A program made the translations under genes and the position numbers. From Mobula hypostoma (lineage: Eukaryota), in assembly GCF_963921235.1 (NCBI RefSeq), contig NC_086107.1, forward strand, positions 105,340,001-105,404,000: 64,000 bases of DNA, given 5' to 3'. Below, in pieces: positions 1,553 to 60,048 of the stretch; the stretch's first letter is position 1, and every line of letters begins with the position of its first letter. The notes under the pieces were generated by a model. The model had not been told where the DNA came from, ran no database searches, and was given only the letters and a program-made list of their open reading frames with translations.

Positions 1553-3783
1553 AACGGTACAAGAAAGGTACGTTGTTTATTTGATGAATGATCATTTGGC
1601 CTGTCTCCTTTCGGTTGCATCGTCAAGCAGATTCCTCATTGATGTGACCATACATTAACATTGATTCCAGTACTTATACCACCCCCACTACCAAACCTCC
1701 TTCCTCTGTCGCTTACCATAAGATATAGGAGCAGGATTAGGCCTTTTGGCCCCGGCATTTTGTCATGGCTGATCCATTTTCCTTCTCAGCCCCAATCTCC
1801 CGTCTCCTCCCCCAATCCCTCATGCTCTGACTAATTGAGAATTGATGACCCTCTGCTTTAAAATACATCCGATGACTTGTTCTCCACAGCCACCTCTAGC
1901 AATGAATTCTACAGATTCACCACTCTCTGGCTAAAGAAATTCCTCTTCATCTTCATTCTAAAAGGACACCCCTCTATTTGGAGCCTGTGTCTTCTGGTCT
2001 TAAACTCCTCATCATTAATTTAATAAGACAGCTGTGACGGTAGTGTGATTGTGTCAAGATTTACATCTGTGTGGAGACCTCAGCCAACACGTAACCCTGA
2101 TTCAGCTCCGGAAGCAACACAATGTGACTTTTTATTCTAGACCATTTTCTTCGCTCTCTTCCAGTATGTGAGTGCACTTTTAGACAGTAGTTCATGAACA
2201 TCACAGTTTCTATTTATCAGGTGGGACTTTGTAGTATAAACCAGCCTCAAAATGAACAGCAAGTAATTACTAATCTCACCTGCACTGTCCCCTCCAAGAC
2301 GTGTGAGTGCGCGGCCACACAGTAACTGAAATGCTCCCATGCACATAGCCTTCGTTGCCATGCTGCTGGTATTTTATTTTATATAATGCTAATGGAAAGT
2401 GCTACGTACTTTTCAGGCCATGTAAAGATTTCCTGCTGGTATCAATGGTTGGTCCGTGCAGCTGTTTAAAAACAAATTAGAGGGAATTTCGCTCATCTGC
2501 CCTTCACCCCCTCAAGTTGATCCACCTTCCCACCCTTGCTCCATCTCCCCCACCTTTTTATCCTGGCCCTCTCCCCTCTTTCTTTCCAATCCTGATGAAG
2601 GGTCTTGATACGAGGTCAACTGTCTGTTTCCCTCCACCGCCTGACGCGCTGAGTTCCTACGTCTGTTGTTTCCAGAAGTTTCCTTGTTTGGATTTCTCTG
2701 TAAGCGAAAGAATTAAATCTTAAATCACTTCCTTTTGAATCAAACCGTAAGTTACACAACAGCCACAGAGGATAAAGGTCAACGTCTTGGAGGCCTGAGT
2801 GGGCAAGTCCTGAAGAAGAGTCTCAACCCAAAATGTTGACTGTTTGTTCGTCTCCATAGATGCTGCCTGGCCTGCTGAGTTCCTCCAGCATTTTCTGTGT
2901 GTTAGTCTGGATCTCCAGCATCTGCAGAGTCTCTTGTGTTTATAACAATAACCTCAACGCCCAATAGAGACGTGAGAAGACTTTACAACTGGAAGATGGG
3001 AGCAGGAGAAGTCCATTTGGCCCCTCAAGCCTTTCCTACTATCCACCATGATCACGGCTGATCTCTGCGCCACGGTCGATTAACCGTTAGCATCACACTA
3101 TTACAACGTCAACGAACCAGGTTCAATTCCCGCCACTGTCTGTAAGGATTTTGCAGAGTCTTCCTGTGACTCTGTGGGTTTCCTCCCGTAGGTCGAAAGA
3201 TGTGTGTTCGTAGGTTAATTGATCTCATTGGGTGGTACGGGCTTGTTGTTACTGTGCTGTATCTCTAAATCAAAAAAAAATCCGCCCTTAAATTCTCTTT
3301 TGTGCCATTTCCCCAGGACACTTGACTCCTCAATCTCTCAGCGATTTATCTAATTCCACATTAAACATATTTAAGGATACAGCCTCCTTCACTCTCAGGG
3401 ACAGAGAATTCCAGGAATTCTAACACACCTCATATTGAAATGAGCAACACTTTATTTTGTAAATATGCCCTCTCGATTGTGATGAGTGGAAACATTTCAC
3501 GCCAACCCTGACAGGCCTCGTTAGGGGATTTATATGTTTGTCCTCATATTCAACAAGTTTAGAGCAGTAAGGTGTGCCGAGGTGTTTGATAGGTGTGTGG
3601 TCACACTAGATTGGAGGCCAGTCAGCGATGGGATATCAGGCAAGGTGACCCGGAGATGAGGGACAAATGCTGTTCAGGACACTGGGGTTAACTTGCTTCC
3701 CCATTTCAGAAAGGCTAGGGGATCTTTTACATCATCAGAGAGTCCTGGGCGCCAGAATACCTCAAATAAAAGGGGGCTGATCT

Positions 3784-4535
3784 CACAGTACAGGATACCC
3801 CCATTACACACCCTCCCACAGTACAGGATTCCCCCATTACACACCCTCCCACAGTACAGGATACCCCCATTACACACCCTCCCACAGTACAGGATTCCCC
3901 CATTACACACCCTCCCACAGTACAGGATTCCCCCATTACACACCCTCCCACAGTACAGGATTCCCCCATTACACACCCTCCCACAGTACAGGATACCCCC
4001 ATTACACACCCTCCCACAGTACGGGATACCCTCATTACACACCCTCCCACAGTACGGGATACCCTCATTACACACCCTCCCACAGTACGGGATACCCTCA
4101 TTACACACCCTCCCACAGTACGGGATTCCCCCATTACACACCCTCCCACAGTACGGGATTCCCCCATTACACACCCTTCCACAGTACGGGATACCCTCAT
4201 TACACACCCTCCCACAGTACGGGATACCCTCATTACACACCCTCCCACAGCACAGGATACCCCCATTACACACCCTCCCACAGTACAGGATTTCCCCATT
4301 ACACACCCTCCCACAGTACAGGGCACCCTCATTTCAAACACTCCCACAGTACAGGACTCCCTCATTACACACCTTCCACAATGTACAGGATTCTCTCATT
4401 ACTCATCCTCCACAGTACAGGATTGCTCCATTACACCCCTCCCACAGTACAGGACACCCTCATTACAAACACTCCCACAGTACAGTACTCCCACATTGCA
4501 CACCCTCCTACAGTAGAAGTCTCCCTCATTACAGA
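3784..4535. repeat. 33-bp minisatellite (~22 units, degenerate at 3' end)
   Basis: Unit CACAGTACAGGATACCCCCATTACACACCCTCC; 11-aa periodic ORFs on both strands. Confidence 0.95.
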
Positions 4536-5208
4536 GGTGGTTTGCCATTGCCTTCTTCTGGGCAGTATCTTTACAAGACATATCCCAGCCATTGTCAATG
4601 CTCTTCAGAGATTGTCATGGTTTCACATGACCCTGATCTGGGGGGTGGGTTGGTTGGGCAAGGCAGGTGCTATAACTTGCCCAAAGAATGCCTTACACCT
4701 CTTTTGGTAGGGACAGCCCCACTCTACTACCCTTTGGCAAAATTAGTAATATCATTGTTGCTAATTTTAATCCTGTACTTTTGAATCTGATAATATTGGG
4801 ACTCCCTTATTAGATGCTTCCGTAATACCTTCAAGCTATGGGTTCAGCTGTTCCTCAGAGCCCAGTAATTACATTAAACACCATTACCTATGTCCTCTCA
4901 CCCTCTGCCGACTTTATCCAGCGAAATCAAAGCACATGAAATCCAGAAGGAAGTGGTTTTGTGTTTGTTCCATTCTTAGTGAAGATGGATTGTTGTCAAT
5001 CATCGACTGGGCTCCTGGGTGAGTCAACCAATGATGAAATCACCATTCATCCGTCGGTACTAGAGGCAAATAAACTCAGTCTTTATTGGGACTCTTGCCT
5101 CGAAAGAAACCTCAACACAAATCGACATTTGGATGTCTACCATGGTAACCAGAATTTGTTCAGAAAGGCATGCTAGTTGCTTATGAAACACTTCATATTT
5201 CATATAAA

Positions 5209-5738
5209 TGTAACCCCCAGGCTCGCCCAGCTTGTGTTCGTCTAGGGGAATCAGCCTTCGGCCCCGCCAAACCGTGTAACCACGTTTGTGTGGATGCTGT
5301 GTAATGTACCCCCAGTTACAAATCCACAACGCAAAATATCAGACAGTACAGCATATGCAACTAAATATTTGAACTTTATGAATCTTAATCTGAATATAGG
5401 GTTAGTAATGAAAATAAACAAAAACAAAAAGGGCCCAAGTCAAGTTAAAATAACGTTGGAGGTCACGTAGTCATTCTTCCACCATCGGTCTCCTCCGAAC
5501 CTTCGGACCCTCAGATCCCAGTCCACTCTGTCCGGTGGTCTTCTAGATCTCTCCACACGTGTCTTCCCTCTTCCTCTCTCCTCGACGAAAGACCGCGAAA
5601 AACCCGGCTCCCAGACTCGCAAGAAAGAACAATGTTTGCTGATTGGCTAACCCCTGCATTCCAAAGTCCCGTTATCTCTAGCCATAACCCAGACATTGCT
5701 GCTACAGAGAAACAATTACCTCAGCAGTGAACGTCACA
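5209..5738 (-). mobile_element. Solo LTR (same family as 9500-10028)
   Basis: TGTAAC...GTCACA termini and clear similarity to the 9500-10028 copy. Confidence 0.7.
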
Positions 5739-5789
5739 AAGAAGCCATTACATATATATATATATGATGAAATATTTCCTTTGTTTTGT

Positions 5790-6727
5790 AAACAGGTGAA
5801 AATCTGCAGATTCTGGAAACCTGAGCAACACACACAAACTGCTGGGGGAGCTTAGCAGGCCAGGCAACATCTGTGGAAAAAATTACAGTCGATGTTTCAG
5901 GCCGAGACCCTTCAGCAGGCCTGGAGGAAAAAAGATGAAGAGTAGAGTTAATAGGTGGGGGTAGGGGAAAGAGAAACACAAGGTGATAGGTGAAACTGGG
6001 AGGGGGAGGGATGAAGTAAAGTGTTGGGAAGTTGAACGATGAAAGAGATACAAAGCTGGAGAAGAGGGAGTCTGATAGGAGACAACAGAAGGCCGTGGAA
6101 GCAAAAAAGGTGGGGAGGAGCACCAGAGAGAGGTGATGGGCAGGCAAGGAGATAAGGTGAGAGTAGGAAAAGTGGATGGGGAATGGTGAAGGAGTTGGGG
6201 GAGGGGGCGGGAGCCATTACCGGAAGTTCGAGAAATTGGTGTTCATGCCATCAGGTTGGAGGCTACCCAGATGGAATACAAAGTGTTGCCCTCCAACCTG
6301 AGTGTAGCCTCATTGCGACAGTAGAGGAGGCCATGGATTGACACATCAGAATGGGAATGGGAAGCGGAATTAAAATGGGTGGCCACTGGCAGATGAAGAT
6401 GGAGCATAGGTGCTCGGCGAAACGGTCTCCCAATCTGCGTCAGGTCTCACCGATATACAGGAGCACTGGACACAGTATATGACCCCAACAGACTCACAGG
6501 TGAAGTGTCACCTCACCTGGAAGGACTGTTTGGGGCCCTGAGTGGTAGTGAGGGAGGAGGTGTAGGAGCAGGTGTAGCACTTGTTCGCTTGCAGGGATAA
6601 ATGCCAGGAGGGAGATTAGCGGGGAGGGTCAATTGGACAAGGGAGTTGTGTAGGGAACAATCCCTGTGGAAAGCAGAGAGTGGGTGGGGGGGTTTGGGAA
6701 AGATGTGCTTGGTGGTGGGATCATGTG
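5790..6727 (-). mobile_element. Penelope-like element 3' part (GIY-YIG endonuclease remnant + pseudo-LTR with hammerhead motif)
   Basis: Minus strand encodes degenerate QVR.HFTCES.GVIYC..LLYIGET; hammerhead-like motif at 5886-5922. Confidence 0.75.
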
Positions 6728-6748
6728 GAATGATTCACTGAGAACATA

Positions 6749-10413: not shown

Positions 10414-11905
10414 AACTTTCTTTATGTGGGATTTAAAATTCAAATCTGAAATTGAGGGTAATGCCCAGGCTTGTTACTTCTAATGTTACAAGGGGAGCCA
10501 AACCCTCAAGCTTATCTCTTTTGGCTTTGGGACCAACCAAAAGTATTTCAGCTTTACCTTCATTTAATTTTTTGGAAATTATTGCCCATCCATTTGTTTA
10601 TTGCAACCATATCAGAAGTCAGAGAGATCGGGTGTATTCATCATCAGGCTCAACCGAGATATACAATTGTGTGTCATCCGCATAATTGTGGAAATGAAGT
10701 TTATGCTCTCTGATGACGCCTTCTAAAGGGAGCTTGTATAAGAAGAGTAGGGGACTAAGACAGCTTCCCTGACAAACACCAAAAAGTACCTTGTATCTCT
10801 TAGAAAACTGGTCTCCAAGACAGACAGTAAATTTTCTCTCTCAGATAGATGAATGAAACTAATTAAGGGCACTGCCAACGATGCCAACCCAATTTTCAAG
10901 GTGATTTAGGAGATTGTTGTGGTCAATTGTGTCGAAGGCAGCACTTAGATCTGGAAGAATTAGAACTGAGACTCTGCTAGCATCAGTGCTGAGCCTAAGG
11001 TTGCTGACAATTTCATCTCCATGCTCTGTTTTGCTCTGAAACCTGACCGAAACCTTTCTGGGATATTTTTTCTCATTCAGAAAATATTGAGTTGGTTGAA
11101 AATTACTCTCTCAAGAATCTTGCCCAGGAAGGGAAGATTTGATATAGGCCTGTAGTTAGCTAGTACCTCACTATCAAGGTTTGGCTTTTTAAGGAGGGGT
11201 TTGAGAGCTGCAGTTTAGAAGGCATTTGGAAACACTCCACTTCAAGGGATCTGTTAATAATTTTCCTAACAGAGTTGAAAGAGTCCTTAAAATATGTGGC
11301 AGGGAGATTGTGCTGAGCTGTGGCTGGTCAGTGTCACACTGTCCTCCAGCAGTCCTGAATCAGCCAGGCCCTGTTGTCAGGCCTGTGGCTTTCAGCTTGT
11401 CTTCTATCCTTCTGGTGCAGCCGCGCAGCATTCTCACAGGAGTTACCTCTTCAACCTCAACCCCTTCCAAAAACCATCGCCATCCCATTTCAATTCAACT
11501 TCCCATTCCATTCGGACAGGTCGGTCCATGGCCTCCTCTACTGTCACGATGAGGCCTCTCACAGTTTGGGGTGGGGTGGGGCACATCTCAGATTTTGCCT
11601 AGGTAGTCTCTGACCTGACAGCGATTTCTCCGCCCTCTTTATCAATCTCACCATTGTGGCTCCCCTCCTACCCCCTCTCCCCTCCTCACCCACCTGTCAC
11701 CCTCCTCTGGTGCATCCCCGCCTTCCCTTTCTCCCACAATCCATTCTCTTCTCCTATCAGATTCCTTCTTCACCCCCTCACCTATCAACGAATCTCAGGG
11801 TTGTATATAGTGACATATATATACTCTGATAATAAATTTGCTCTGAAATTTAATTTACTTTGAACTATTTCACCTCCCAGCTTCTCACTTCATCGCACTC
11901 CCCTG

Positions 11906-12110
11906 CTCACCCACCTTTCCCCTCACCTGACCTCACCTGTCACCTGCCAGTCTATGCCCCTCCACTCCGCCCACTCACCCACCTTCCCCCTCATCTGACC
12001 TCACCTGTCACCTGCCAGTCTATGCCCCTCCACTCCGCCCACTCACCCACCTTCCCCCTCACCTGACCTCACCTGTCACCTGCCAGTCTATGTCCCTCCA
12101 CCTCCGCCCA
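11906..12110. repeat. 68-bp tandem repeat x3 within a Penelope-derived segment
   Basis: ctcacccacc..cctcacctgtcacctgccagtctatg unit starts at 11906, 11974 and 12042. Confidence 0.85.
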
Positions 12111-12440
12111 CTTTCTTATTCCTGTTTCTTTCCCCCTTCCTTTCCAGTCCCAGCTCAAACTGTTGACTGTTTACTCCCCTCTGCAGAAACTGCCTGCCCT
12201 GCGCAGTTCTTCCAGAACTTTGTGTGTTGCTTACCAGCACAAACTTGGATTAAAATTAGCGTTTGAAGCTGAGTGCCAGTGATCGCCAAATCTGCAGGGT
12301 GGTCCTGGAAATTTCAGGAAAGGTGGGTTTGGTCTCCTGTTTCTCGGAGGAAAGGAAAGGCAGAACATTACAGGATATTTAAAGATACAACCAACTCCTG
12401 TGATCATGTTGATGCTCCCTAACGGCAGGTTCTCTGAGGA

Positions 12441-13030: not shown

Positions 13031-16000
13031 GAAGGTACATTATTCATTGGCTTGAAAACAGATGTCTGCATTGGATGATGATCTAACTCTGCATTTGTCA
13101 TATTCTGACCATAGATAAAGGACTGAAACAGGTTAACCGAGAGATCTTCCTCAACTTGTGCACTTCTTGTCCCTCGTCCTATAGATGCTGTGAATGCACA
13201 GTACATCTCAGTTTGTGACATTTTCTGAAGCATCAAGTTTCTCCAGGTTAAAGTTCGGTGGCCCTCTCACCGCTTCTCTTCTCCTCTCTCACCCTCATGA
13301 CCTGCCTATCACCTCCCTCTTGTTCTCCACCTCCTTCCCTTTATTCCATGCTCCACTTTCCTCCCGCACCAGATTCCTCTTCTCCAGCCCTTTACCTGTT
13401 CCACCTGTCACACCTGAGCTCCTCGCATCATGCACTTTCACCCTTCCCATCCCACCCACCTGCCTTTCATCTCACCTGGACTCACCTATCACCCGCCAGC
13501 TTAGACCATAAAACTATAAGACCATAAGACATAGGAGCAGAATTGGGCCCTTTGGCCCATCATGTTTGCTCTGACATTTAATTAAGGCTGTTTTTTCTTC
13601 CTTCTCCTGCTTTTTCCCTGTAACCTTTGACACCATTACTAATCAAGAACCTATCAACCGCCACTTTAAATATACCTAACGACTTGATCTCCACAGCTGT
13701 CAGAGGCAATGAATTCCACAGATCCACCACCCTGTGGCTGAAGAAATGTCTTCTCATCTCATCTGAGATCTCATCACATCTGCTCTATCCGCACCTTTCA
13801 ACAAGCGCCGGGGGCAGCCTGCGAACGTCGCTCATTCTGCATCCTCGTAGTGTTCAGCAGAAGAACACAAGGCACATCAACAACAACACAACGACAGGAG
13901 CAAAGGAAGTCAACAAAGGCAAAACAAGTTCCGTTCTTCCCTCCCCCCCACTTCCAAATCCAACATAGGCTGCCGTCGGGTCCAGCCTCCAACGGACATG
14001 TAGGACATCTGACTTCTCCAGCGCACTTGCAGATCAAGGATCTCGGCTTGTGGACTCACTGACTTTGGTCTTCGATCTAGCCAGACTCTGCTTGCCGTGC
14101 ATTTATCACGGTCATTGATTCTACTACAAGCCACAGCATTTAGAGGAATTTTGAGTCACGTTTAGAAGGACAGGTACAATTTACTTATAATGGGCCACAG
14201 TTTGCATTCGGGGTGTTTCCAGTGTCTGTGAAGACTTGCTACCACCACCACTGTGCTCACTGTGAGAGCATACGCTGGAGTTAAGTTCTGTAAGCAAAAT
14301 GTTACCATCAGTCACAAATCTCTAGAACTGAACATGGATTGTAGATTAAATTTTAAATGCAGCCCTGGACAATAGTTTCCTGGAGCTGCAGACAGCAGTT
14401 AATTGAAAAACCAGACAATGTTGATTAGTGTTTCACTCACAACAAGCTGGAGGAACTCAGCAGGTCGGGCAGCATCCGTGGAAACGATCAGTTTCAGGCT
14501 GGAACCCTTCGTCAGGATGAAGCGTTGATTAGTGTTTGTTTTGGGTGTCTGGAGAGTGGGTGTGAAGAAGGTGATGTGAAAGTTGTATGTAATTCAAAGG
14601 AAGCATTGTAGATACATTGTAAATCGAGAATTGTCCTTTGATCTTTAGTATATAAAATGTCATGTAACGTTGGGTCAAACTGTCCGCTGCGTCTGAAAGG
14701 GTCTCAATATGATGCCTGCCCTTGTTTTTGTTGAATAAACCACTTGTGTATCTGTAAGCTTCAGACTGTCTCCAGTGAATTTGTTCACATTACAACAGCC
14801 ACAATCAAATCGTAAACCCAAGAATGGCGTGAAAATTGTTCAGGGATTTTCCACACGATACAAAGAATTCCCGAAGTTAGTTAAGTTGTCATTACATACC
14901 AAGAGACTGCAGATTCTGGAATCTGGAGCAACAAAGTATCTGATAAGATGATTTTTATTTCTCATAGATACACCAAGTCCTCCTGAAGGACCACAACCTT
15001 GTCGTTGGGTTTGGAGACTTGCCTGCCTCAGTGACCCAGAGAGCGATATTGTCTTGAGTCAGGGTTTTAAGCTTTGGCTCTTGGTAGGGTCACCCACTCC
15101 AAACAGGTCAAAGGGTAGAAGTTAGACTAAGAGTGGTTCACCGGTCCTCCAGGTTCGGGTGTTCTGCTCAGGGCTAACAACCCTGACTGGTAAAACAAAA
15201 TTGTTATGGAAACAGCGACGAGGAATCCTTCTACACCTGGGCGCAACGGAATTCCTAAGTCTCCATCCGGGACTTGTATGACTGGCAGTGGTGAAAACCG
15301 AGAGGAATCTACTGACATGACGAAGAAAGTCCTGAACACCGCCACAGATGGAGGGCCTTCATCGCTGCCCTAAATGCTCGCGGCGAAACGGGCTGTAAGT
15401 AAATACATGAAATGATTGAAACATACAGTGAAATTAACTGTTTGCATCCACGGCCAACATGGTCTGGGGATGTGCTGGAGGCAGCTCGTACGTTTTGCCA
15501 TGTTACCCGCGACAGCGCGGCATGCCCACAACTTACTTCCCGCCCCATCTTTGGAATGTACGTGGGAGTGAACTGAAGCATCCAGAAGAAAATCACGTGA
15601 TCGTAGAGAGGACGCACGAACTTCTCACCCGCGGTGGCCGTTGAACCCCAGTCACGGACACCGTAAAGCATAATGCGACCCGCCACCTGAGCTCCACTTG
15701 AAGAACTCAACAGGTCGAGCGGCATCTGTGGAGGAGAAAGACTTGCCGACGTTTCTGGTCCCGACGCAGCAATCCGTCGGGGGGGGGGTGGTTCTGTGTG
15801 CTTTCACTGCCGCTGTTGAGGGCGTAATGTAATGGCTACGTTACTGGTCAGGCAACCAAGGTTATGGACCACTGCTGTATAGACATCAGTTCAAATCCCA
15901 GGAAAGTCACATTCAAATAAGGAAATAAAAGAAGCCTGTTAGAGTCACTGATATCCTTCAGGGAAAGGCAGTGAATCTGTGGAATTCTGCTGTGGAGCCT

Positions 16001-17065
16001 GAGTCACTGGGTATATTGAAGGCGGAGGTTGATAGGTTCTTGCTTAGTCAGGGTGTCAAAGGTTATGGGGAGAAGGCAGGAGAATGGGGTTGAGAGGGAT
16101 AGTAAATCAGCCGTGACAAAATAGCGGAGAAGGCTTGATGGGCTGAATGGCCTAATTCTGCTCCTATATCTTTCTTTTCAAATTTTTTTGTTATATTATA
16201 CAAAAGAAATAACACAACTACATTGAAGTAACAACACTTACAATGTCTCAAAAAAGACATTATCTTAAAGATTGAAAAACAAATCTGCGGTAACAAAAAC
16301 AACCTACTAAGCAGAAAAAGTGAAGGAAAAAAAAAGAACCCATTAGGTGTACAACCCTGGAGTCATGCGTCATACAAAAAGCTTCTAAAAATAAACATCA
16401 AACCGCCAGCAAGAAAAGAAAATATACCAGAAAATTCACAATTAGATCGTGGAAAAAATCTATCAATTAGCTCAAATGATAATAATGAGCAAATGAGCCC
16501 CATCTTTTCTCAAAATCAAAAAAAGGTTCCAAGGTTCGACTTCTGATTTTCTCCAAACTAAGACATAGCATCACTTGAGAGAACCATTGTGACAAAGTGG
16601 GAGCTGATGTATCCTTCCACTTCAACAAAATGGCCCTATATCTGATGCATATAAGCTGTTGCTTCTCATTCTGTACCCTGTCTACGCTCTTCATGATCAA
16701 AGCCACGAAGGACTGCTACAGACGGCTGTGGAGGCCAAGTGATTGGGTATATTTAAGGCAGGGGTTAATAGGTTCTTGATTAGTAAAGGTGTCTAAGGTT
16801 GTGGGGAGGCTAATGAGGTTAAAAGGGATAATAAATCAACTGTGATGGAATGGTGCAGCAGACTCGATGGGCCAAATGGTCTAATTCCTCTTCTATGGTC
16901 TTATGATCGTATGGTGTTCAGGGAAGGAAATCAACATGTGAATCCAAGCCTACCACAGTCGCTGACTCCTGGCTGTCTCGTCAATTCCGGGCCAGTTGAC
17001 GATGTACAACAAATGCTGGCGTTGCCAATAGCAATCCACGTCCCGTAACTAAGCAACCAATAAAA

Positions 17066-17922
17066 CGTAAACACAAGAGATCCTGCAGACGCTGGAAATC
17101 CAGAGCAACACGCACACACACACACACACACACAATGCTGGAGGAACTCAGCAGGTCAGGCAGCACCTATGGAAAGAAATGAAGAGTCAACGATTCGGGC
17201 CGAGACCCTTCATCAGGACTGGAAGGGAAAGGGGAAGATGTCCGAATGCGAAGGTGGGGGAAGGGGAAGGAGGACAAGCTAGAAGGTGATAGGTGAGGTC
17301 AGGTGGGTGATGGAGTCAGAAGCTGGGCGGTGATAGGTGGGAAAGGCAAAGGGCTGAAGAGGAAGGAATCTGATAGGAGGGGAGAGTGGACCATGGGAGA
17401 AAGGGAAGGTGGAGGAGAACCAGGGGGAGGTGATAGCCAGGTGAGGAGATGAGGTAAGAGGCCAGAGTGGGGAAAAGAAGAAGAGGGAGATGAAGAAGAA
17501 GAAGAAGGGAGGTGGTGGGGGGCGGGGAAATTACCAGAAGTTGGAGAAATTGATACATTCCCAACAGGTTGGAGGCTACCTGGACGGAATATAAGGTGTT
17601 GCTCCTCCAACTTGAGGGTGGCCTCGTCATGGCACAGGAGGAGGCCATGGACTGGCATGTTGGGACGGGAATGGAGAAAGGAATTGAAATGGTTGGCCAC
17701 TAGGCAACTCCGTTTCTTGTGGATGGAGCTGAAGCGGTCCCCCAGACTATGTCGGGTCTCACCAGTGTAGAGGAGGCTGCATCAGGAACATTGGATCCAG
17801 CAGATGACCCTAACAGGTGAAGTGTTGCCTCACCTGCATGGACTGTTTGGGGCCCTGAATGTCGGTGAAGGAGTAGATGAAGGGGCAGGTGTAGCACTTT
17901 GGCCTCTTGCAGGGATAAGTGC
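17066..17922 (-). mobile_element. Penelope-like element 3' part
   Basis: GTYPCKR.KCYTC..IQGPKQSMQVRQHFTC and LYTGETR GIY-YIG remnants; hammerhead-like motif at 17185-17220. Confidence 0.75.
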
Positions 17923-17924
17923 CT

Positions 17925-37683: not shown

Positions 37684-37696
37684 TGAACTTTGACCT
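37684..37696 (-). promoter_or_regulatory. Perfect DR1 nuclear-receptor element AGGTCA-A-AGTTCA in GPRC5 intron 2
   Basis: Plus strand TGAACTTTGACCT in non-repeat sequence; function untested. Confidence 0.45.
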
Positions 37697-37994
37697 CCCC
37701 GAAATACAGAGTAAAACATTAAACCCCTGAGATATTGGAACCTTTAAATTCTAGCAACCCGTGGTGAAGGGATGTGGTAGAACATGGGGTTCTGACTGCA
37801 CTTTGTGCACTTTCTGGATGGTTTCTGAGCTCAGAGGAGTTCAGTTTGTATTTGAAATTTCAGATTGCTGGGTGCTTGTGAGTCTCATGGGCAAATTTGA
37901 AGCGCTGAACTTCTTTGCTGTCTTAAACAGTTTCGGTAATGTGGTGTGCGAGGTACTTTTATCAAGTTCCTTAGCCAAAGTTGCAGAAGATGTT

Positions 37995-43701: not shown

Positions 43702-43796
43702 CACATTACCTCACTACTTCTTTATTTCCTAATTTTTTGCACCACTTACTTAATTAAACTATTCACTGTAATTCACAGTTTTCTTTTTTTCTCTCT

Positions 43797-44110
43797 GAGT
43801 GGGCACGTGGCCAAGTGGTTAAGGCATTCGACTGGCGATCTGAAGGTCGTGAGTTCGAGCCCCAGCCGAGGCAGCGTGTTGTGTCCTTGAGCAAGGCACT
43901 TAATCACACATTGCTCTGCGACGACACTGGTGCCAAGCTGTATGGGTCCTAATGCCCTTCCCTTGGACAACATTGGTGTCGTGGAGAGGGGAGACGTGCA
44001 GCATGGGCAACTGCTGGTCTTCCATACAACCTTGCCCAGGCCTGCGCTCTGGGGAGTGAAGACTTTCCAGGCGCAGATCCATGGTCTCGCAAGACTAACG
44101 GATGCCTTTT
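43797..44110 (+). mobile_element. tRNA-derived SINE
   Basis: A box TGGCCAAGTGG, B box GAGTTCGAGCC, ~230-bp body and T-rich tail. Confidence 0.88.
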
Positions 44111-44432
44111 TCTTTTTGTTTTCTCTCTATTATCATGTATTGCTATGTACTGCTGCAGCCAAGTTAACAAATTTCACAGCTTATGCCGATGATATTAAAC
44201 CTGATTCTAATTCTGAATCTGAAACTGAATCTGGAGAAAGTGGATGGGAATGTGGAGTGAATAAAGTGCAATTCATGTAAATAATAACATAGACTCACTG
44301 GGCCGAAGGGTCGGTTGTTTTACTCTACTTGAGAAGATCTTTTTGGCCAAATCCCAGTTCAGAGTTATAAGCCAAGATCTTCTATCCTGGAAATATTCAC
44401 AGCTAATCATCTCACAAGAACCCCTCACTCAC

Positions 44433-45406
44433 CTCTGTTTGACTCCTCGTACGTGAACACTTGATTGTCTACGCCACCCATCATTCCACCGTGTGGATTC
44501 TGAGGCACGGCCTCCACGGGTCCATCCTCGAGCTTGGCCGGGCAGGTGATGTGCCAGAGCTGGGGGATGATGTAGAACAGGAGGAAGACCCAGCCATTGG
44601 CGACCAGCGCGATGCTGAGCGTCGGGTCGTCCCACAGGGGGCTCTTGCCCAGTGCGGCGTTCCCGCGCACCAGCATGACTATCCACACCACCCAGATCGC
44701 AATGGAGAGCAGCATGGTAACAAAGACGTGCGCGCCATATTTCTTCCACTTCTGGTAGCGGCCGCAGAAGGTGAACATGGACAGGATGAAAGTCAGGGCC
44801 ATCAGGAACATGACGTAGATGAGCAACATGGTGAAGTCAGTGCTGGTGTAGGAACAGTTTTCTTTCATTCGGTGGGTTAGCAGCACCAGATACTCTATGT
44901 CGATGATGACTTGGACCAGCGTGAGGCACAGGACCACGGTGAGCATGCAGCACCCAGACGGACCGTTTCCTGACCGCACCAGCTTCAGCACTCTCCAAAC
45001 CTGGGCCAGCAAGCAGGAGAAGCAGATGGCAAAGAGCACGCCCCAGAGGAAGATCCTGGTGGGACACGTCCTCTGATCGAGCTTGGTGATGAAAGCGAAG
45101 GTTAAGCCAAAGATCCCCATGGTGCCGAGCAGGAAGACGCAGTGGACGGGAACGGAAGCCTTCTTCCTGCTGTCGACAATGAAAGGGGTGATGCCCAGGA
45201 GCACCATGACCAGCACCAGGCTGGTGACGATCCCCAGAGCGGCAAAGGCTTCCAGGACGATCCCCCACACCGCATCCAGGTCACACAGGTTGAAGTATAC
45301 GCTTAGAAGGTTGGGACCACAGCCTCTTGGAGGAGAGCTCTGAGCAGATCCATAACCAAACACGGACAACAGGAAGGGCAGTGCTGCGATTATCTTCCAG
45401 TTCACC
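44433..45406 (-). CDS. GPRC5A: GPRC5A/D-like 7TM receptor, large coding exon 2 (signal peptide, short ectodomain, all 7 TM helices)
   Basis: Acceptor tttctcctttcag|G and donor AGAG|gtgagt; 974 nt. GPRC5 motifs: GCG..NLCD..WGIVLE, GIFGLTFAFI, FAICFSCLLA, MALTF..TFCG, LSIAIWVVW, WDDPTL.IAL.ANGWVFLL, VDNQVF. Family assignment is firm; the paralog (A vs D vs B/C) is less certain. Confidence 0.95.
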
Positions 45407-45464
45407 CTGAAAGGAGAAATTGAAAAACATAACCAACAATTTAAAGTGTACCTTCTCCATAATA

Positions 45465-45912
45465 AGACCACAGGGAATGCTGTAGGAGTGGAATCATTTG
45501 GTCTTTCATCTCTGCCCTGATACTTCATCATGGCTGATTTATTATCCCTCCCATTCTCCTGCCTTCTCCCCATAACCTTTGATGTCCTTACTAATAAAGA
45601 ACCTATCAACCTTGGCTTTAAGTACACCCAATGACTTGGCCTCCGTAGCCATCTGCGACAATGCATTCCACAAATTCACCACCCTCTGGCTGAAGAAACT
45701 CCTTCTCATTCCTGTTCTAAAGGCACACCTTTGTAATCTGAAGCTGTGCTCTCTGGTCCTAGACTCCCCCACTATAGGAAACATCCTCTCCACATCCACT
45801 CTATCTAGGCCTTTCGATATTCAATAGGATTTAATGAGGTCCTTTCTTATTTTTCTAAACTCCAGTGAGCACAGGCCCACAGCCAACAAACTCTCATCCT
45901 ACATTAACCCTC
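45465..45912 (-). mobile_element. CR1 3' fragment immediately upstream of the exon 2 acceptor
   Basis: DVERMFPIVGESRTREHS..FFSQRVVNLWNAL. Confidence 0.88.
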
Positions 45913-46141
45913 AACTTTAGAACATAGAACATTACAGGCCTTTCAGCCCACGATGTTGTACTGCTCTCCATCAAGGTAGATCAACCATGTGTCTATCTAA
46001 GAGTTTCTTAAATGCCCCTAATGTATCTGCCTCTACCACCACCCCTGGCAAAGTAATTCACACACACCCACCCTCCATATAAAGAATCTGCATCTGACAT
46101 CCCCCCCCCCCATACCTTCCTCCAATCACCTTAAAAGTATG

Positions 46142-46324
46142 ACTCACAACACGCTGGAGGAACTCAGCAGGTCCGGCAGCATCAGCGGAAAAGATCGATC
46201 GACGAAGGGTTCCAGCCCAAAACGTCGATCGATCTTTTCCACTGATGCTGCCCGACCTGCTGAGTTCGTCCAGCATATTGTGAGTGTTGCTTTGACCCCA
46301 GCATCGGCAGATTATTTTGTGTTT
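46142..46324. mobile_element. Fold-back Penelope-derived short insertion with 14-bp TSD
   Basis: ACCTTAAAAGTATG at 46128-46141 and 46325-46338; ~58-bp inverted arms. Confidence 0.8.
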
Positions 46325-47825
46325 ACCTTAAAAGTATGCCTTCTTGTATAAGCCATTCCCGTCCTGGGCAAAAGTCTCTGTCTATCCACTCTATAAATGT
46401 TCCTTATCATCTCGTGCATCTCCATCAAGTCACCTTTCATCCTCCTTCACTCCAAAGAGAAAAGCCCCAGCTCGCTAACTTATCTTCATCATGCTAATAC
46501 AGGCAGCATCCTGGTAAATCTCCTCTGCATCCTTCTACACCCTTCCTATAATGAGGTGACCAGAACTGAACACAATGTTCCAAGTGTGGTCTAACCAGGG
46601 TTTTAGAGCTGCAATGTTACCTTGTGGCTTTTCTACTCAATTCCACCCCCCTCCCGGACGAATGAAGGCTGACACAACTGTACGCCTTCTTAACCACACT
46701 ATCAACTTGTAAATTCATATCTCAATTCCAGGAGAAACTGGCTGTAAGCTGCATTAAATGTCTGTTGCCTCTTACAACATGTTTAAGGTAAACATGATTC
46801 ACCTTGACTCAGAGTTTTGGTTGGGATAGTCTCCTGAGGGTGTGGATTCGCATGGCTGACAATGTCATTTGGCTGAGATTTTAACAGTGCACGCCAGACT
46901 TCGGCATTAACCTCCGCCGCTCGCAGAAATCCAAATCTGCGATTAAATGGAGTGAGTCTCGACGCCTTGTCTTTGCCCTGTTTGCTGCACAGCTAGTTCA
47001 TGGTCACAGGTTGGTTGTTAAGTGGGGACTCAGCAAAGGTGGGCACTCGGGGGGGGCAACACACAGGACTGGGTGAGGCAAGTGGCATCTCTGTCCCTGG
47101 AGGGAAGGGACATTTGTTCCCTACGTATCACAGAGACATGAGACAAACTATAACACAGAACCTCTGTGGTCCCCTGATAGTTGGTATCAGCTGTGACCTA
47201 CTGACAAGGCAAAAACAAACCCTGTCATGCAAATCTAGGAAACCAAACAGCAGCAGTGAAACAGGCGCAGAGATCAACCCCTCCACCCAGTAGCAGTGTT
47301 GGTGATCTACTGACTACCACCAAGAAGGATCCAGTTAACATAGAGGGCAGGGGAAAAGATCTACTGATCAAGGGGGCACTGGCAGCACCGTTCGACACAC
47401 GAGTCACAAAATCTATTGAACAGATGGGTGGGGGGGTTGGTGGGAAGGGGCAAGTTTGTGGCTGGCAGACAAGAATCTATTCAACAAGTGGATCACTTGC
47501 AAAGATACCACCGATGGAGAAGGCGCGGGAAGGATGTTCTGATCCTGGTAGATCACTAGCAAAGATCTATTGAACAATGGCTAGGATCTGGTCAACAAGA
47601 GGGCTGTCTGTGTGTATGTGGGTGGATGGGTGGATGGGAGGGAGGAAAGGGGCTCGCTTTCTCGAATTGTTCTGCTCGTTATATTTTGTTTTGTCGTGTC
47701 CCGTGTTGTTCGGCGGGAGTACTGCGGGCGTGCTACGTTGGCGCCCCGCAAAATGCGGCTGCCCCCGGCACATCCCTAAACGGTTGCTAACAAAGGTCGC
47801 ATTTTACTGAATGTTTCGACATACA

Positions 47826-48058
47826 CGGTAGCGTCGCGGCTAGCACAGCGTTTTACAGCGCCAGGGGCCCGGGTTCAAATCCTGCCGCTGCCTGTAAGGG
47901 GTTCGTACGTTCTCCCCGTGACTGCGCGTGGGTTTCCTCCGGGTGCTGCGGTTTCCTCCCACAGCCCAAAGACCTACCGGTTGGTAGGTTAATTGATCAT
48001 CGTAAACTTCCCCGTGATTGGGCTAGGGGTTGCTGGGCCAGAAGGGCTGTATCTCAAA
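47826..48058 (+). mobile_element. tRNA-derived SINE with V/HE1-like core; many further copies in the window
   Basis: B box GGTTCAAATCC followed by gttctccccgtgactgcg..gggtttcctccgggtgc..ggtttcctcccaca. Confidence 0.75.
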
Positions 48059-48229
48059 AATCAACAGACGTGATAAGTAAATCTTAATCTAAAGTGCATC
48101 ACTTTCAACGATCCGATCAGCATGTGTGGAAACGATCTACTGGAACCGTGGCGGGGGGGGGGGGGGGACGGGGACAGGATCTAGTCAACAAGTCGATCAT
48201 CGGCAAGGATCTACTGAACAAAACCGGAG

Positions 48230-49150
48230 TGACTTCCCTCGGAGGGGACGGCATCACAAATAGATAGCTCCCAGCCCCGGCGTCCATTGCCCGTCTCGTC
48301 CTCGCCACCCCTCAAAGCCAAGGGTCGGGGGACGCGCGAACCCGTCGGCGGACACTTCGGCTTCACAATCCCGGTCTGAGGGAGGAAGGCAAGCGGACCC
48401 TACTCTAGCTCCCTCCGGGTTAAAAAAAAATAAACTCAGGAGGGAACCGTGATTTCACGCCTCAAAGTAGAAATGAAGAGAAAGGAAAGATTTAAAATGT
48501 CCCTGAACCCAACTCCTTACGGGCCAGATTTCCACCGGGGGGGGGGTCTGAAGGTGGTGCCCTACCTTGGTGTTGCTGTTCGCGATGCCCCCGCCATCTC
48601 GCTCTCTGTTTTATGTCGGAGCTGCCTCCCTGGTCTCCTTTTATCGCCTGCTGTGTTCAGGTGTGCCCAGGTGTGTCAGCACCTGCGTCAGTTCACTCTC
48701 CCAGCCTGACGTTGCTGGGGCGAATACCTGCCGACGTTTTGTCTTACCTGTTTCCCCGCTGCCTGGAAATTCGAGTTCCTACCGCCAGGCGCGTTTTGCC
48801 GTCGCCCCGCAGAGTTGCATTTCCTTAGCGCCTGCCAAACTCCCCAGTGCGATTTCCAGACAATGAAACCGGCTCTAAATTGCAGACCTGGCACTAGTCC
48901 GGTTTGTGGTCCAGTACTACGGTCGCAATAAAGCCGGGGTAGACCATCCGGCCCCTCCAGCTTGTACATTGGAAATTGAAGCCCCTCCTGCCTGGACTGT
49001 CACTCAGTCGGGTCTTTCACCTCTCCATCACTTTCCCCCATTAATCTCGAATCTCGAGATTCTCGTAATACGGAATGAAGTTTCAATTTGGGTCTTGGAC
49101 GTACACGGGGGACTGAACCAGAATGCTCCGGTAGGAAATTCCGAAGATTT
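48230..49150 (-). promoter_or_regulatory. CpG-rich promoter / first-exon region of the GPRC5 gene
   Basis: Locally high CpG density in non-repeat DNA. TATA-like GATAAAAG at 48645-48638, TGACGCA at 48690-48684, multiple CAGGTG/CAGGTA boxes, and GGAAATTCC at 49134-49142. Confidence 0.7.
48566..48597 (-). CDS. GPRC5A: GPRC5A/D-like receptor, coding exon 1 (MAGASRTATP + phase 2)
   Basis: Minus strand reads gcgagATGG (good Kozak) ...CCAAG|gtaggg. The 32 nt end in phase 2, and AG+G completes Arg in frame with exon 2. It lies inside the CpG-rich promoter region. Confidence 0.7.
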
Positions 49151-52100
49151 TCCAGGCTAAGTTATAAAGAGTGGCTGGATATTTATTTATTTACTGGGAT
49201 ACAGTTCAAACCACACCACTCACCAATCTCCTGATTTAATCCTAGCCTTCTATGTTTCTATGTTAATAACAGGACAATAACCAATTAACCTAGCAACCGG
49301 TACATCTTTGGACTGTGGGAGGAAACCAGAGCACTGGGAGGAAACGTGGTCATGGGGGAGTGCATGCAAACTCCTTACGGGCAGTGGCGGTCCCTGGTAC
49401 TGTAAAGCGTTGTGCTAACCACTAGGTTACCATGGTGCCCATGTTGGGACCTTTATCCCTGGAGTGGAGAGGGCTGAGGAGATGACCTTACAGAGGTTTA
49501 TAAAATTATTTGGTGGATGGTCACAGTTTTTTACCCCATCAAATTAGAGAATCTGGAAACTCTAGGTTTAAGGCGAAAGGAAATACGATGGGCAACCTTT
49601 CCACACAGAGGCTAGTGGGTATGTGGGTCAAACTTTCAGGGGAAGCTGTAGAGGCGGGTACAGTCACAATATTTAAAAGGCATTCAGACAGCTACAGGGA
49701 CAGGAAAGGGTTAGAATACAGGACAAATGGGATTAGCTCAGGTAGACAACTTGGTCAGGCAGGTCAAAGGTCCTGATTTATGCCCTATGACTTTCTATGA
49801 CTCAGTGAATAAACCTCTTCTTGTTTCACCCTGAATAGCTGACCACTTATTCTGAGACTGTGACCCATGGATCCTGACACCCGTCCCTGCATCATTTTCT
49901 ACTGGAGGGTTCCGGAGGTTCAAGATTCAAGAGTTGGGTACATTTATTATCAAAGAATATATAAATTATCCAGCCTTGAGATTTACCTGCTCACAGGTGG
50001 CCACAAAGCAAGGAACCTGAAAAAACCCAATTAAAGAAAAAAAGAATAAAAAACATAAAAGACCAATGAGCAAGAGAAAGAAAAAAAATCATGAGAACCA
50101 TTGTGTATGTTGAAGATAGAAATTGAAACACCCTTTGACGTTAATTTCATGAGGTTCTGGAGGTTCACTCCTTCTGTATGTTCAAGATAGATGTTAATTT
50201 GACAAGGCTCCATCTCATTTTACTAATCTTAAGAGAACATATGCTAACTTCTACTCATACAACAAGCTTGCCACCCCAATAATCTGTCTGATAAACTTTC
50301 ACCACACCCCTTTCAGTGCCAGTACATCCTCCCTTGGATTGGGATACCAGAGCTGTGACCAATATTTCAGAAGTAGACTAACTGGGACCCTTTGTAATTG
50401 GAGAGATACATCCCCACTCTTGTATCCAAATCCCCTTTGTACTGTACCCTCTCTTTCTAGGAGCTGTTTAAGGAGGAGGGAGGTATATTTATGGGAAACC
50501 TGGGAGTTAATCTGATTAACCCTTCCCCAGCCCCCTCTATCTTTTAACCCGTGACATTGCAAGCACGAAACCAGTTTTTATAATGCTGTTTACATTGTAA
50601 AACACATGCTAGTATTTATGTACAATATTGTGCAAAAGCCTTAGGCAGATATATATAGCTAGGGTGCCCAAGACTTTTGCACAGTCCTGTAGTAATTTTA
50701 TGTACAGTATTGCACTGTATAGTTGCCACACAAAAAAATAAATTTCATGATCTATGTGAGTCATGATAACCCTGATTCCAATATGGATCTCTAGTGTGGA
50801 CTGAGAGTGGGAAAGGGAATCATGGTTGGGAAAAGGGGAAGGGTGGCGGGGGGCACCAGAGAGACATTCTGTAATGATCAATAGACCAGTTGTTTGGAAT
50901 CAAATAACCTTGCCTGCTGTCTTAGCGCTGGGTGCGTCTGCACCCGTGCCAGCCCCTGCCCTGGCACTCCTTCTCTGCCACCTGTCCCACACCCCTCCCG
51001 CAGTACTCCGCCTTCGCTCCTTTGCTCCCACCAGATTTACAAACTCGCTTTCCACTCCATATTGACAAGTACAGTACTGTGCAAAAGTCTTTTATATGTA
51101 TATACTCTGAAGAGTTTGCACAGTACTGTATTTTATGCACATTTAATTCCATATCCTTACTTTAACATCTAACTTTATTTCTTTATAGAATTCTTTATTC
51201 TTTATAATTGCTGAATGCTCCTTTTTTGGCTGCATGTTGTGGTCTGACCAACAATATTTAATGTATACAGTGAATAAAGTTGCTGCTTAATCCTCGATCC
51301 TTGGGAAGTGAGGGCAATGAGCTACTAAATCAGAAGAGTTGAGGCCCAGGGGCAGATAGCAAGGGATACAGGCTAAATGTAGGCGAAGGGGACTACCCCA
51401 GTTAGACAACCTGGTCAGCTCTGATGTTGGGCGGAAGGACCTATTTCCATGATGTGTATTGCTGTGCCTCTATGAGTAAAAGATATTTTAAATGGGACTG
51501 ATTTCAGGGGCAGGGGACTCGATCCTGCTCCTATTTTCTTATGTTTCTTTCCCTTATCAAATCCTTGGTCATCCATTGCTGAAATCTGAAATATTTCCAG
51601 TTCTCAGCTCCTTCCACCTACCCGCTCCCAGCATTTTACTTCATCACCCCCCCCCCCCCATGTGAGCCATGTCCATAGCACAGAAGCAACCTGATGGCAT
51701 GAACATTTATTTCTGGCAATTTTCACATTCCCCATTCTGACTCTCCTCTTGCCCCTTTTCTTCTGCTCGCCTGCCCATCACCTCCCTCTGGTTCCCTTCC
51801 TCCTTCCCCTTTCCCCCATGGTCCACTCTCTTCCCCTATCAGATTCCTCCTTCTTCAGCCCTTTACCTGTTCCACCTATCACCTTGCAGCTCCTTAATTG
51901 ATGATCCTCCTCAACCCACCCATCTTCCCCCACACCTGCTTATTCTGGGGTCCTTCACCTTTTCCAGTAGTGAAGAAACGTTGACTGTTTGTTCCCCTCC
52001 TGCTGGGTTCCTCCAGCATTTTGTGTGTGTCGCTCAGTCTTACTTGGGTAGCCCAACGGTTAACAGTAGAGCTGCTGCCTCACAGCTCTAATGACCTGGG

Positions 52101-58784: not shown

Positions 58785-59212
58785 CATAGAACATAGAATA
58801 GTACAGCACAGTACAGGCCCTTCGGCCCACAATGTTGTGCCGACCCTTGAACCCTGCCTCCCATATAAGCCCCCACCTCAAATTCCTCCATATACCTGTC
58901 TAGTAGTCTCTTAAATTTCACCAGTGTATCTGCCTCCACCACTGACTCAGGGAGTGTATTCCACCAACCACTCTCTGAGTAAAAAACCTTCCTCTACTAT
59001 CCCCCTTGAACTTCCCAACCCTTACCTTAAAGCCATGTCCTCTTGTATTGAGCAGTGGTGCCCTGGGGAAGGGGTGCTGGCTATCCACTCTATCTATTCC
59101 TCTTATTATCTTGTACACCTCTATCATGTCTCCTCTCATCCTCCTTCTCTCCAAAGAGTAAAGCCCTAGCTCCCTTAATCTCTGATCATAATCCATACTC
59201 TCTAAACCAGGC
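58785..59212 (-). mobile_element. CR1 3' fragment
   Basis: LRELGLYSLERRRMRGDMIEVYKIIRG. Confidence 0.9.
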
Positions 59213-59534
59213 AGATACGTTGTATCTGTCATTCATTCTTCGGGATTTTTCTTCTGTTTCGTGGATGTCTGTGAAGAGTAAGAATTTCAGGTTCTCTGGT
59301 ATTAAATGGAACCATTGAACAAGCCCGCGCCGCCCTCTTGCACCCACGTGACCAACACACGTACTAATCCAAATGTGGTTGGACTGTGGGAGGAAACCAG
59401 GGCGCCCGGAGGAAACCCACACGGTTGCGGGGATGACACGCAATCTCGGTGAAGACAGTGGCAGAACTGATCTCGGACCGCTGGCGCTGCAAAAGTTTTC
59501 CGCTAACCGCGCTACGCTACCGTGCCGCCCAACC

Positions 59535-60048
59535 GTAGAAAGTTGCTGGTGAATGCAGCAGGCCAGGCAGCATCTCTAGGAAGAGGTACAGTCGACATTT
59601 CAGGCCGAGACCCTTCGTCAGGACTAACTGAAAGAAAAGTTAGTAAGAGATTTGAAAGTGGGAGGGGGAAGGGGAGATCCAAAATGATAGGAGAAGACAG
59701 GAGGGGGAGGGATGGAGCCAAGAGCTGGACAGGTGATTGGCAAAAGGGGATACGAGAGGATCATGGGACAGGAGGCCCAGGGAGAAGGAAAAGGGGGAGG
59801 GGGGGAACCTAGAGAATGGGCAAGGGGTATAGTCAGAGGGACAGAGGGAGAAAAAGGAGAGAGAGAGAAAGAATGTGTGTATATAAATAAATAAATAATG
59901 GATGGGGTACGAGGGGGAGGTGGGGCATTAGCGGAAGTTTGAGAAGTCAATGTTCACGCCATCAGGTTGGAGGCTACCCGGACGGAATATAAGATGTTGT
60001 TCCTCCAACCTGAGTGTGGCTTCATCTTTACAGTAGAGGAGGTCGTGG
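59535..60048 (-). mobile_element. Penelope-like element 3' part
   Basis: Same 3' architecture as the other Penelope copies; carries the best-preserved hammerhead motif. Confidence 0.75.
59590..59625 (-). ncRNA. Minimal type-I hammerhead ribozyme motif in a Penelope-like element (best-preserved copy)
   Basis: Minus strand AGTC-CTGACGA-AGGGTCTCGGCCT-GAAA-TGTC-GACT: core CUGANGA and GAAA, stem II hairpin, GUC triplet, stem I AGUC/GACU. Confidence 0.65.

Follow-up and report, generated by a model that had tools for sequence, protein, structure and literature searches.

Dispersed through a 64,000-nucleotide stretch of the genome of the ray Mobula hypostoma (assembly GCF_963921235.1, contig NC_086107.1, positions 105,340,001–105,404,000; hereafter the window) are many copies of a ~36-nt motif. 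With a probability that we put at roughly 0.9, the motif is a minimal hammerhead carried at the 3′ end by numerous separate copies, 5′-truncated and mutated, of a GIY-YIG Penelope-like element (PLE), probably a member of the Neptune clade; almost every one of these hammerheads is likely inactive. Both the motif class and its carrier are already described, and the ray family is an addition to the known list. The clustering of 5′ ends and strand flips at the motif hints that the hammerhead shapes how the element is copied, which provides a modest mechanistic lead.

An earlier note, made from the sequence alone, had listed 11 copies of the motif and called it a minimal type-I hammerhead of Penelope origin. 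All 11 were found, on the correct strands and no more than 3 nt from where they had been placed, and the majority sequence of the copies agrees with the consensus that had been given. The call itself was borne out by this majority motif, which has the core, stems I and II, and a palindromic stem III. It consists of a stem I of 4–5 bp, the core CUGAUGA, one extra A, a stem II of 4 bp, and GAAA, followed by the loop-less palindrome ACGU (stem III), C17, and the second strand of stem I. The features that define minimal hammerheads (min-HHRs) are present, namely an extra base after A9, a G10.1-C11.1 pair, and a palindromic 15.2–16.2.

The motif is more frequent than the roughly one copy per 6 kb estimated earlier. 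A profile built from eight of the listed motifs detected 30 segments in the window by nhmmer (E≤0.05) and none at this threshold in the reversed window. With a longer profile and fragment-by-fragment alignment, we catalogued 31 fragments having the motif and/or its 3′ flank, or ~1 per 2 kb. Profile matches cover 8,637 of the 64,000 bases, including a 1.5-kb minisatellite grown within one copy. The complete CUGANGA and GAAA core, with U16.1-H17 and stems I and II, occurs in the majority sequence and in one of the 22 fragments that cover all 11 core columns and could therefore be scored. Likewise, a strict minimal-hammerhead descriptor matched the window once, at 59590–59625, and matched none of 20 dinucleotide shuffles. 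Rfam covariance models gave no hammerhead family among 20 matches to the window at E≤1; a mir-1791 match at 46163–46264 was rejected, as it is the hairpin insertion described below and lies far under the gathering score.

Contigs of four sequencing runs were compared with positions 17131–17430 as the reference, and 97,366 and 85,920 pieces were placed from two DNA-like runs of two organisms. This shows that the family is very large in both, although placed pieces give no copy number. Contig depth over the reference tracked likeness to this single copy and was not used. At sites where the 17185 copy deviates from the majority, contigs from the two DNA runs were read, and in run X2 the majority base made up ~96% of depth at A15.1 and ~62% at C17. 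The motif or its flank was also sought by pattern among viral, prokaryote-genome, and metagenome contigs, which yielded no loci, and protein-based locus searches for the element yielded no usable loci.

The carrier element and the decay of its copies

The element is ordered as a Zn-finger linker, a GIY-YIG remnant, a ~300-nt pyrimidine-rich untranslated region (UTR), the 36-nt hammerhead motif, a ~60-nt flank, and an optional ~40-nt tail. Twelve of the 31 fragments extend upstream into the UTR, and eight of these reach the broken endonuclease frame, while the motif occurs in none of the 16 tandem-repeat rows of the window. Because the motif is in no tandem array and so many copies continue into UTR and endonuclease, we take the copies to be truncated PLE ends. 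The two longest copies have a CxxxxCxxC linker and then a VIYC...LLY(I/T)GET nuclease domain, with stops and frameshifts; a CX2-5CxxC Zn-finger linker precedes the endonuclease in the copies at 17k and 5.8k.

A full HMMER search with an 82-amino acid frame from the window identified 66 relatives, of which the named ones come from sharks, skates, and rays. Relatives of 55–65% identity have GIY-YIG, faintly by Pfam and distinctly by features and model. The Pfam GIY-YIG domain was detected in 6 of 16 relatives scanned (E 3e-5 to 8e-3, one above the curated cut-off), and a CX3-5CxxC linker is present in four of five, the fifth match being a different cysteine run. The domain of the closest relative agrees with GIY-YIG clusters in features (0.97) and in model TM (0.86–0.94), and two of these clusters also carry RVT_1. 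In another relative, P0179, a region resembling reverse transcriptase (RT) is joined to an endonuclease of 42% identity; a structure search by sequence with this protein found no similar solved structure. Three batoid proteins annotated as a RecQ5 isoform (P0138), a neuromedin-U receptor (P0148), and a ‘mucin-2’ isoform (P0121) hold stretches of the PLE endonuclease, which are probably exonised or mis-annotated element fragments.

The insertions have two kinds of 3′ end, at profile positions 757–768 or 779–808, that is, ~60 nt past the motif or ~40 nt further, in the tail. Six head-to-head inverted pairs occur, and in five of these one arm stops at the short end and the other in the tail. Target-site duplications (TSDs) of 14, 10–12, and 14 nt flank 3 of 19 units tested; in a control, 7 of 400 random pairs reached at least 11 nt. 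Unrelated DNA lies between the members of close same-strand pairs (2585/2806 and 40160/40309), one of which has a TSD of its own. The short end and tail, inverted partners, TSDs, and 5′ truncation are best read as canonical PLE insertion anatomy. With copies that grade into a Zn-finger/GIY-YIG endonuclease remnant, this anatomy upholds the Penelope origin proposed earlier.

Copies appear to decay with little or no selection, about as fast as the rest of the element. The core is unchanged in one of the 22 scorable fragments (59590–59625), has one change in seven, and has two or more in 14. The earlier statements that every copy has at least one substitution against the consensus and that most copies are probably inactive stand. 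G12, which lies in a CpG, is kept in 14 of 22 fragments, and other CpG columns are kept in 115 of 167 cases. Conservation of the non-CpG core columns is 89%. All non-core columns together reach 83% (Fisher p 0.02; base-matched column test p 0.011), and the best-conserved 3′ flank reaches 87% (p 0.33). Among 18 window copies, stems I and II had 4 double changes versus 4.4 in shuffles, with a covariation score of 0.169 versus 0.192; such lack of covariation is expected for copies of one source decaying neutrally. Stem cells are nonetheless paired in 69% of cases, as opposed to 22–46% in slid controls. The earlier note had named a lack of core conservation and of covariation as counting against it, and among the copies this partly holds: covariation is absent and the core does not exceed the best flank, whereas it slightly exceeds non-core columns as a whole.

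Single copies fold no better than their own shuffles (z −0.2 to −1.4, seven of seven sequences). The majority motif is a quasi-palindrome, and its predicted lowest-energy monomer pairs core positions 5–8 with the cleavage-site bases (pair probabilities 0.95–0.97). This inactive hairpin has a predicted energy of −12.7 kcal/mol, versus −10.5 kcal/mol for the open form; for the dimer, the inactive duplex is at −33.7 kcal/mol and the double hammerhead at −19.9 kcal/mol. The 59590 copy is predicted to form the same inactive hairpin. Since a lone hairpin is predicted to be inactive, cleavage would need a dimer and probably the protein of the element. This agrees with reports that min-HHRs failed to cleave singly and were poor at cleaving as dimers (PMC4209133), and that the hammerhead of an Anolis PLE needed its protein, with cleavage dispensable for insertion in vitro (PMC11167929).

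Several observations run counter to this account. The window endonuclease frame itself had no match in a Pfam scan, and a word-seeded homolog search with the endonuclease fragment found no relatives. Neither an RT-coding part nor a full-length element lies within the window, and the PLE clade is therefore assigned from the linker and endonuclease. No TSD was found at 16 of the 19 units tested. The slight excess of core over non-core conservation may be subfamily variation and leaves room for weak selection, and nearest-neighbor energies leave out tertiary contacts.

5′ ends and inversion junctions

The 5′ ends of the fragments gather at the hammerhead. Thirteen of the 31 lie in the 42-nt hammerhead zone, 6 in the 3′ flank, and 12 upstream; ends were read automatically from the alignment, with those of long copies and one mis-aligned fragment taken from the longer-profile search. 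Per 1000 nt at risk, this amounts to 15.3 ends in the hammerhead zone, 5.6 in the 3′ flank, and 1.7 in the UTR (profile 400–660), and the excess has a one-sided p of 3e-5 when the UTR is the reference, 0.018 with the adjacent 42 nt, and 0.03 with the flank. Within the zone, 8 of the 13 ends fall in the first 16 nt (32.5 vs 8.3 per 1000 nt, p 0.015). When inverted arms are omitted, 7 of 18 ends remain in the zone (p 0.0006 vs UTR). Homology is truly lost at these 13 truncated ends, since the DNA upstream of them is 27–63% pyrimidine as compared with 87% for the UTR, and two ends are fixed by TSDs. In the contig comparison, 36 contigs of run X1 stop at 17218 with unrelated sequence beyond, which fits clustering at the 5′ edge and is too weak to count.

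The cut site does not set these ends, and cleavage was rejected as their explanation: none of the 18 non-inverted copies begins at the cut. Twenty of the 31 fragments pass the cut site and reach the hammerhead 5′ edge or beyond. Two inverted arms do end at the cut site, for which microhomology accounts equally well. Inversion junctions also fall at the motif, as at least one arm ends inside the hammerhead in five of the six inverted pairs. The clearest case is the insertion at 46142–46324, a single TSD-flanked event whose arms differ at 5 of 59 nt. It turns exactly at a 4-nt match between core positions 5–8 and the cleavage-site bases, the same match that closes the predicted inactive hairpin. 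Joint rows from contigs over 17131–17430 had no strand change among the 15 of 1,134 rows listed and did not resolve junctions.

These features may be brought together as follows. Judging from the PLE literature, the RT-endonuclease of the element would nick the target and prime reverse transcription at one of two nearby sites, giving the short end or the tail end, and reverse transcription would usually stop early, giving 5′ truncation. The template is likely uncut (or religated) RNA, because most fragments run through the cut site and no non-inverted copy begins there. Stopping and turning points for the cDNA would likely be supplied by the self-complementarity of the hammerhead, which could explain why 5′ ends and inversion junctions gather at it. 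Inverted junctions would arise where helices of the hammerhead let the cDNA fold back or let two cDNAs join, and inserted copies would then decay about as fast as the remainder of the element. We tentatively propose that the hammerhead acts in transposition mainly as an uncut quasi-palindrome and not as scissors: the cDNA would snap back at either stem I or the core-to-cleavage-site helix and thereby end synthesis or prime an inverted arm; this is possible, if on balance doubtful. If true, the head-to-head inverted arrangement of Penelope insertions would be the work of the hammerhead, and a clean fossil of that step would survive in the 46142–46324 hairpin.

The main rival competes only with the stopping and turning step. 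The short copies would be complete ‘strong-stop’ copies of an upstream pseudo-long terminal repeat (pLTR), made from RNA whose 5′ end, a transcription start or a processing site, is at the hammerhead 5′ edge, and would not be stalled cDNAs. A transcript start at this position explains the cluster at the edge equally well, and we consider it a serious contender at somewhat under even odds. The concentration of zone ends in the first 16 nt speaks for it, and a stall at an RNA hairpin is expected at the 3′ foot of the hairpin, not at its 5′ edge. PLE promoters have been located inside the pLTR (PMC2377424). Furthermore, the unit contains two ATGs with a frame open through the tail, and the pLTRs of other PLEs include the first codons of an open reading frame (ORF) (PMC3846280, PMC11167929). 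A strong stop alone leaves unexplained the junctions located at internal palindromic helices (46.2k, 60.5k, and 33.8k) and the spread of ends over profile positions 666–675.

The clustering might also be an artefact of small numbers, a bias toward short copies, and alignments that fail in the low-complexity UTR, which we regard as unlikely. There are 31 fragments, the zones were picked post hoc after the data had been viewed, p is 0.02–0.03 against the nearest zones, and the contig-based genome-wide check resolved no junctions. In addition, 5′-truncated retroelements in any case lose ends at a higher rate toward the 3′ end, and p against the flank is only 0.03. The pyrimidine content of the upstream flanks and the two TSD-fixed ends argue against failed alignment, and the excess over the UTR persists without the inverted arms.

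The earlier note had further suggested a retrozyme-like short element family, that is, non-autonomous hammerhead units amplified by rolling-circle RNA and dispersed as monomers. Many copies are indeed merely 90–140 nt and begin at the hammerhead, two of them with TSDs, and retrozymes argued to derive from PLE pLTRs have been described in one chondrichthyan (bioRxiv 2026.07.22.740005). This suggestion was not borne out, and we consider it very improbable. The motif is in no tandem array, close same-strand pairs are split by unrelated DNA, and fragments extend to the UTR and endonuclease. Moreover, the motif is of the minimal and not the canonical type I form (PMC7229834), and a circular template would not yield ends fixed at two 3′ sites. 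The mark of a retrozyme is two or more consecutive units that each contain a complete hammerhead, and the window has one complete core.

Finally, it is highly unlikely that some copies, above all 59590–59625, are live ribozymes cutting host transcripts such as the pre-mRNA of the GPRC5-family gene in the window: although this copy passes the strict descriptor and shares its strand with GPRC5, whose first coding exon begins ~11 kb downstream, and the core is slightly more conserved than non-core columns, intronic copies include no intact core and show no purge of the sense orientation (9 sense vs 6 antisense), the 59590 copy is a predicted inactive hairpin that has wobbles in both stem II and stem III and lacks an intact partner within the window, and both single min-HHRs (PMC4209133) and the protein-dependent Anolis hammerhead (PMC11167929) speak against autonomous cleavage.

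Fragments in the window and the GPRC5 gene

The best-preserved long copy (17062..17924, minus strand) comprises an endonuclease remnant with Zn-finger linker and GIY-YIG (17545–17923), UTR, a hammerhead with A15.1 changed to U (17185–17220), flank, (TG)n, and tail. A second long 5′-truncated copy on the minus strand (5786..6662) retains a Zn-finger linker and a GIY-YIG remnant interrupted by stops and frameshifts, followed by 3′ UTR, a hammerhead with A6 changed to C (5887–5922), flank, and tail. The plus-strand remnant at 11482..12230 retains the endonuclease C-terminus, UTR, a hammerhead gutted by deletion, and flank, and its UTR bears a threefold duplication of 68 nt (11906–12112). Another long plus-strand copy (51600..52032) has internal deletions in hammerhead and flank. 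The sole complete core belongs to the long minus-strand copy at 59539..60056, whose hammerhead (59590–59625) has a predicted cut between 59594 and 59593, a stem II with G-U at its base, and a stem III palindrome that includes a wobble.

Older or more fragmentary remains on the plus strand include a PLE 3′ end found by profile and alignment and absent from the earlier list (2493..2689; UTR, decayed hammerhead at ~2588–2621, and 3′ flank), a 3′ UTR fragment without hammerhead (13263..13501), a copy with UTR, a hammerhead having a 19-nt internal deletion, flank, and tail (39036..39197), and an old 3′ flank fragment (41853..41903). On the minus strand, an old copy at 25935..27808 has a hammerhead remnant near 25990–26020 and a 3′ UTR expanded into a 48-nt minisatellite (26065–27532, ~30 copies). 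Like the 68-nt triple repeat, this minisatellite sits within a decayed PLE copy, with the endonuclease remnant on one side and the hammerhead on the other; both match the PLE 3′ UTR profile, which suggests that they were born from the UTR of the element. Two further minisatellites with 33-nt and 27-nt units (3784–4533 and 12443–13028) have no PLE profile match.

The short copy at 2806..2942 (plus strand) begins at the first base of stem I and contains a hammerhead with G12 changed to A (2806–2841), 3′ flank, and tail. Directly upstream of it, the minus strand of 2745–2805 resembles a diverged cleavage site and flank and could represent an old inverted arm that the profiles did not pick up. The other short copies are on the minus strand. 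A 90-nt insertion at 14434..14523 starts a few bases before the core, has lost the cleavage triplet by deletion, and is flanked by an exact 14-nt TSD (14420–14433 and 14524–14537). A divergent fragment begins in stem II (15697..15764), and its assignment to the family is weaker. Copies at 32148..32276, beginning in the first core bases, and at 40118..40247, beginning within the hammerhead, each continue through flank and tail. The insertion at 40305..40404 begins 2 nt into stem I and has a TSD of 10–12 nt, and the copy at 42862..42959 begins within the initial 10 nt of its hammerhead, which is heavily decayed.

The inverted units occupy both strands. At 21424..21784, an inverted and partially tandem unit has a minus arm that begins at stem I (21424–21524) and a plus arm made up of a flank fragment, UTR, hammerhead (21658–21690), flank, and partial tail. 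An old pair at 33738..33912, in GPRC5 intron 3, has its junction near 33836, within the hammerhead, while in a small pair at 36663..36746 the junction lies ~18 nt upstream of a hammerhead with two core changes (36705–36740). The hairpin unit at 41572..41770 consists of a reversed, tail-less flank joined at stem I/cut site to a hammerhead (41635–41667), flank, and tail. The 46142..46324 insertion, in GPRC5 intron 1, is a single 183-nt hairpin with a tail on one arm only and an exact 14-nt TSD (46128–46141 and 46325–46338). The minus arm of the pair at 60464..60610 ends in stem II at a 5-nt microhomology, and its plus arm is flank and tail. The insertions at 14434–14523 and 46142–46324 represent a second, better-preserved subfamily, set apart by its stem II loop, flank, and end; each has an exact 14-nt TSD, and the targets are AT-rich.

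The large window ORF encodes a GPRC5-family receptor (Pfam 7tm_3) that is 96% identical to a Mobula birostris protein and 88% identical to one of Hemitrygon, which marks the host as a myliobatiform ray. The gene (33542..48597, minus strand) has coding exons at 48597–48565, 45408–44431, 35991–35919, and 33658–33542, and its introns hold 15 fragments, 9 sense and 6 antisense. Mapping of the exons confirmed that the 36189 and 40853 copies lie in sense in intron 2. The former belongs to a long minus-strand copy (36093..36565) ~100 nt upstream of exon 3, whose hammerhead (36189–36222) is without the 5′ strand of stem I and has two core changes. The latter is a long minus-strand copy (40785..41454) with endonuclease remnant, UTR, a hammerhead with G12 changed to A (40853–40888), and flank. 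A likely effect of the copies on GPRC5 found no support, as no intronic copy has an intact core and sense copies are not depleted, and the element copies have no evident role in GPRC5. The sense copy at 36093–36565 ends ~100 nt upstream of the exon 3 acceptor (35991), and its pyrimidine-rich UTR could affect splice-site choice.

Elsewhere in the window, a LINE reverse transcriptase fragment (Pfam RVT_1) is located at 30165–30926, and the open frame at 19100–19480 has no Pfam match. Several other dispersed repeat families, with many repeats of 100–350 nt, fill the window, and the short PLE copy at 32148–32276 adjoins one of these.

Comparison with known systems

Minimal hammerheads are known in the pLTRs of metazoan PLEs, including Xena, Poseidon, and Neptune of fish (Cervera & de la Pena 2014, PMC4209133). 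The ray motif shares with these the type I core, a stem I of 4–5 bp, the extra base between A9 and stem II, G10.1-C11.1, and the loop-less palindromic 15.2–16.2, and differs in its short stem II (4 bp). In both cases the motifs are mainly single and dispersed, in truncated PLEs, with opposite-strand pairs 100–700 bp apart. The ray is not among the hosts named in the portions of that paper covered here; its supplements may list cartilaginous fish. The density of ~1 fragment per 2 kb in the window is far above the 4,000–9,000 per genome given there for coelacanth and Xenopus, although those are descriptor hits and most ray copies fail the descriptor.

A C-terminal GIY-YIG domain with a Zn-finger linker of this type defines the Neptune and Nematis clades of PLEs (PMC8557442), and of the two Neptune is the one reported with fish hammerheads (PMC4209133). 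Like canonical endonuclease-positive Neptune elements (Craig et al. 2021, PMC8557442; Arkhipova et al. 2013, PMC3846280), the ray family has the C-terminal GIY-YIG, the CX2-5CxxC linker, heavy 5′ truncation, partial tandems, a head-to-head inverted partner, a 30–40 bp tail at one end only, TSDs, and palindromes at inverted junctions. Unlike these elements, it has no RT domain in the window, and its clade is assigned indirectly. Inverted partners, tails, junction palindromes, and a proposal of self-priming are thus already published, while these two accounts, in the portions cited here, do not put truncation or inversion points at the hammerhead. The PLE literature covered contains no statement that such points map there; work on dimeric PLE hammerheads by Lunse et al. 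and the papers Arkhipova 2006 and 2017 fall outside this coverage, and such a statement may therefore exist in print.

Non-LTR retrozymes (Cervera & de la Pena 2020, PMC7229834; bioRxiv 10.64898/2026.07.22.740005) resemble the ray copies as short, non-coding, dispersed animal repeats with a type I hammerhead and a relationship to PLEs. However, retrozymes are head-to-tail arrays that yield circular RNA, whereas the ray motif is in no array and its copies grade into PLE coding remnants.

Poseidon PAc of Anolis (Frangieh et al. 2024, PMC11167929) resembles the ray family in that two adjacent 3′ ends define a tail, the hammerhead lies ~100 nt upstream of these, and an ATG is found at the start of stem II; in PAc uncut RNA serves as the insertion template, as is likely in the ray. 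Poseidon does not have the Zn-finger linker of the ray family, and PAc has been characterized biochemically whereas the ray family is known from sequence. The function of PLE hammerheads has been called unclear (PMC8557442), and the abundance of ray copies leaves very many 5′ and inversion junctions as a natural record. If these junctions pile up at the hammerhead helices and not at the cut site, the function becomes directly testable with the existing in vitro PLE system.

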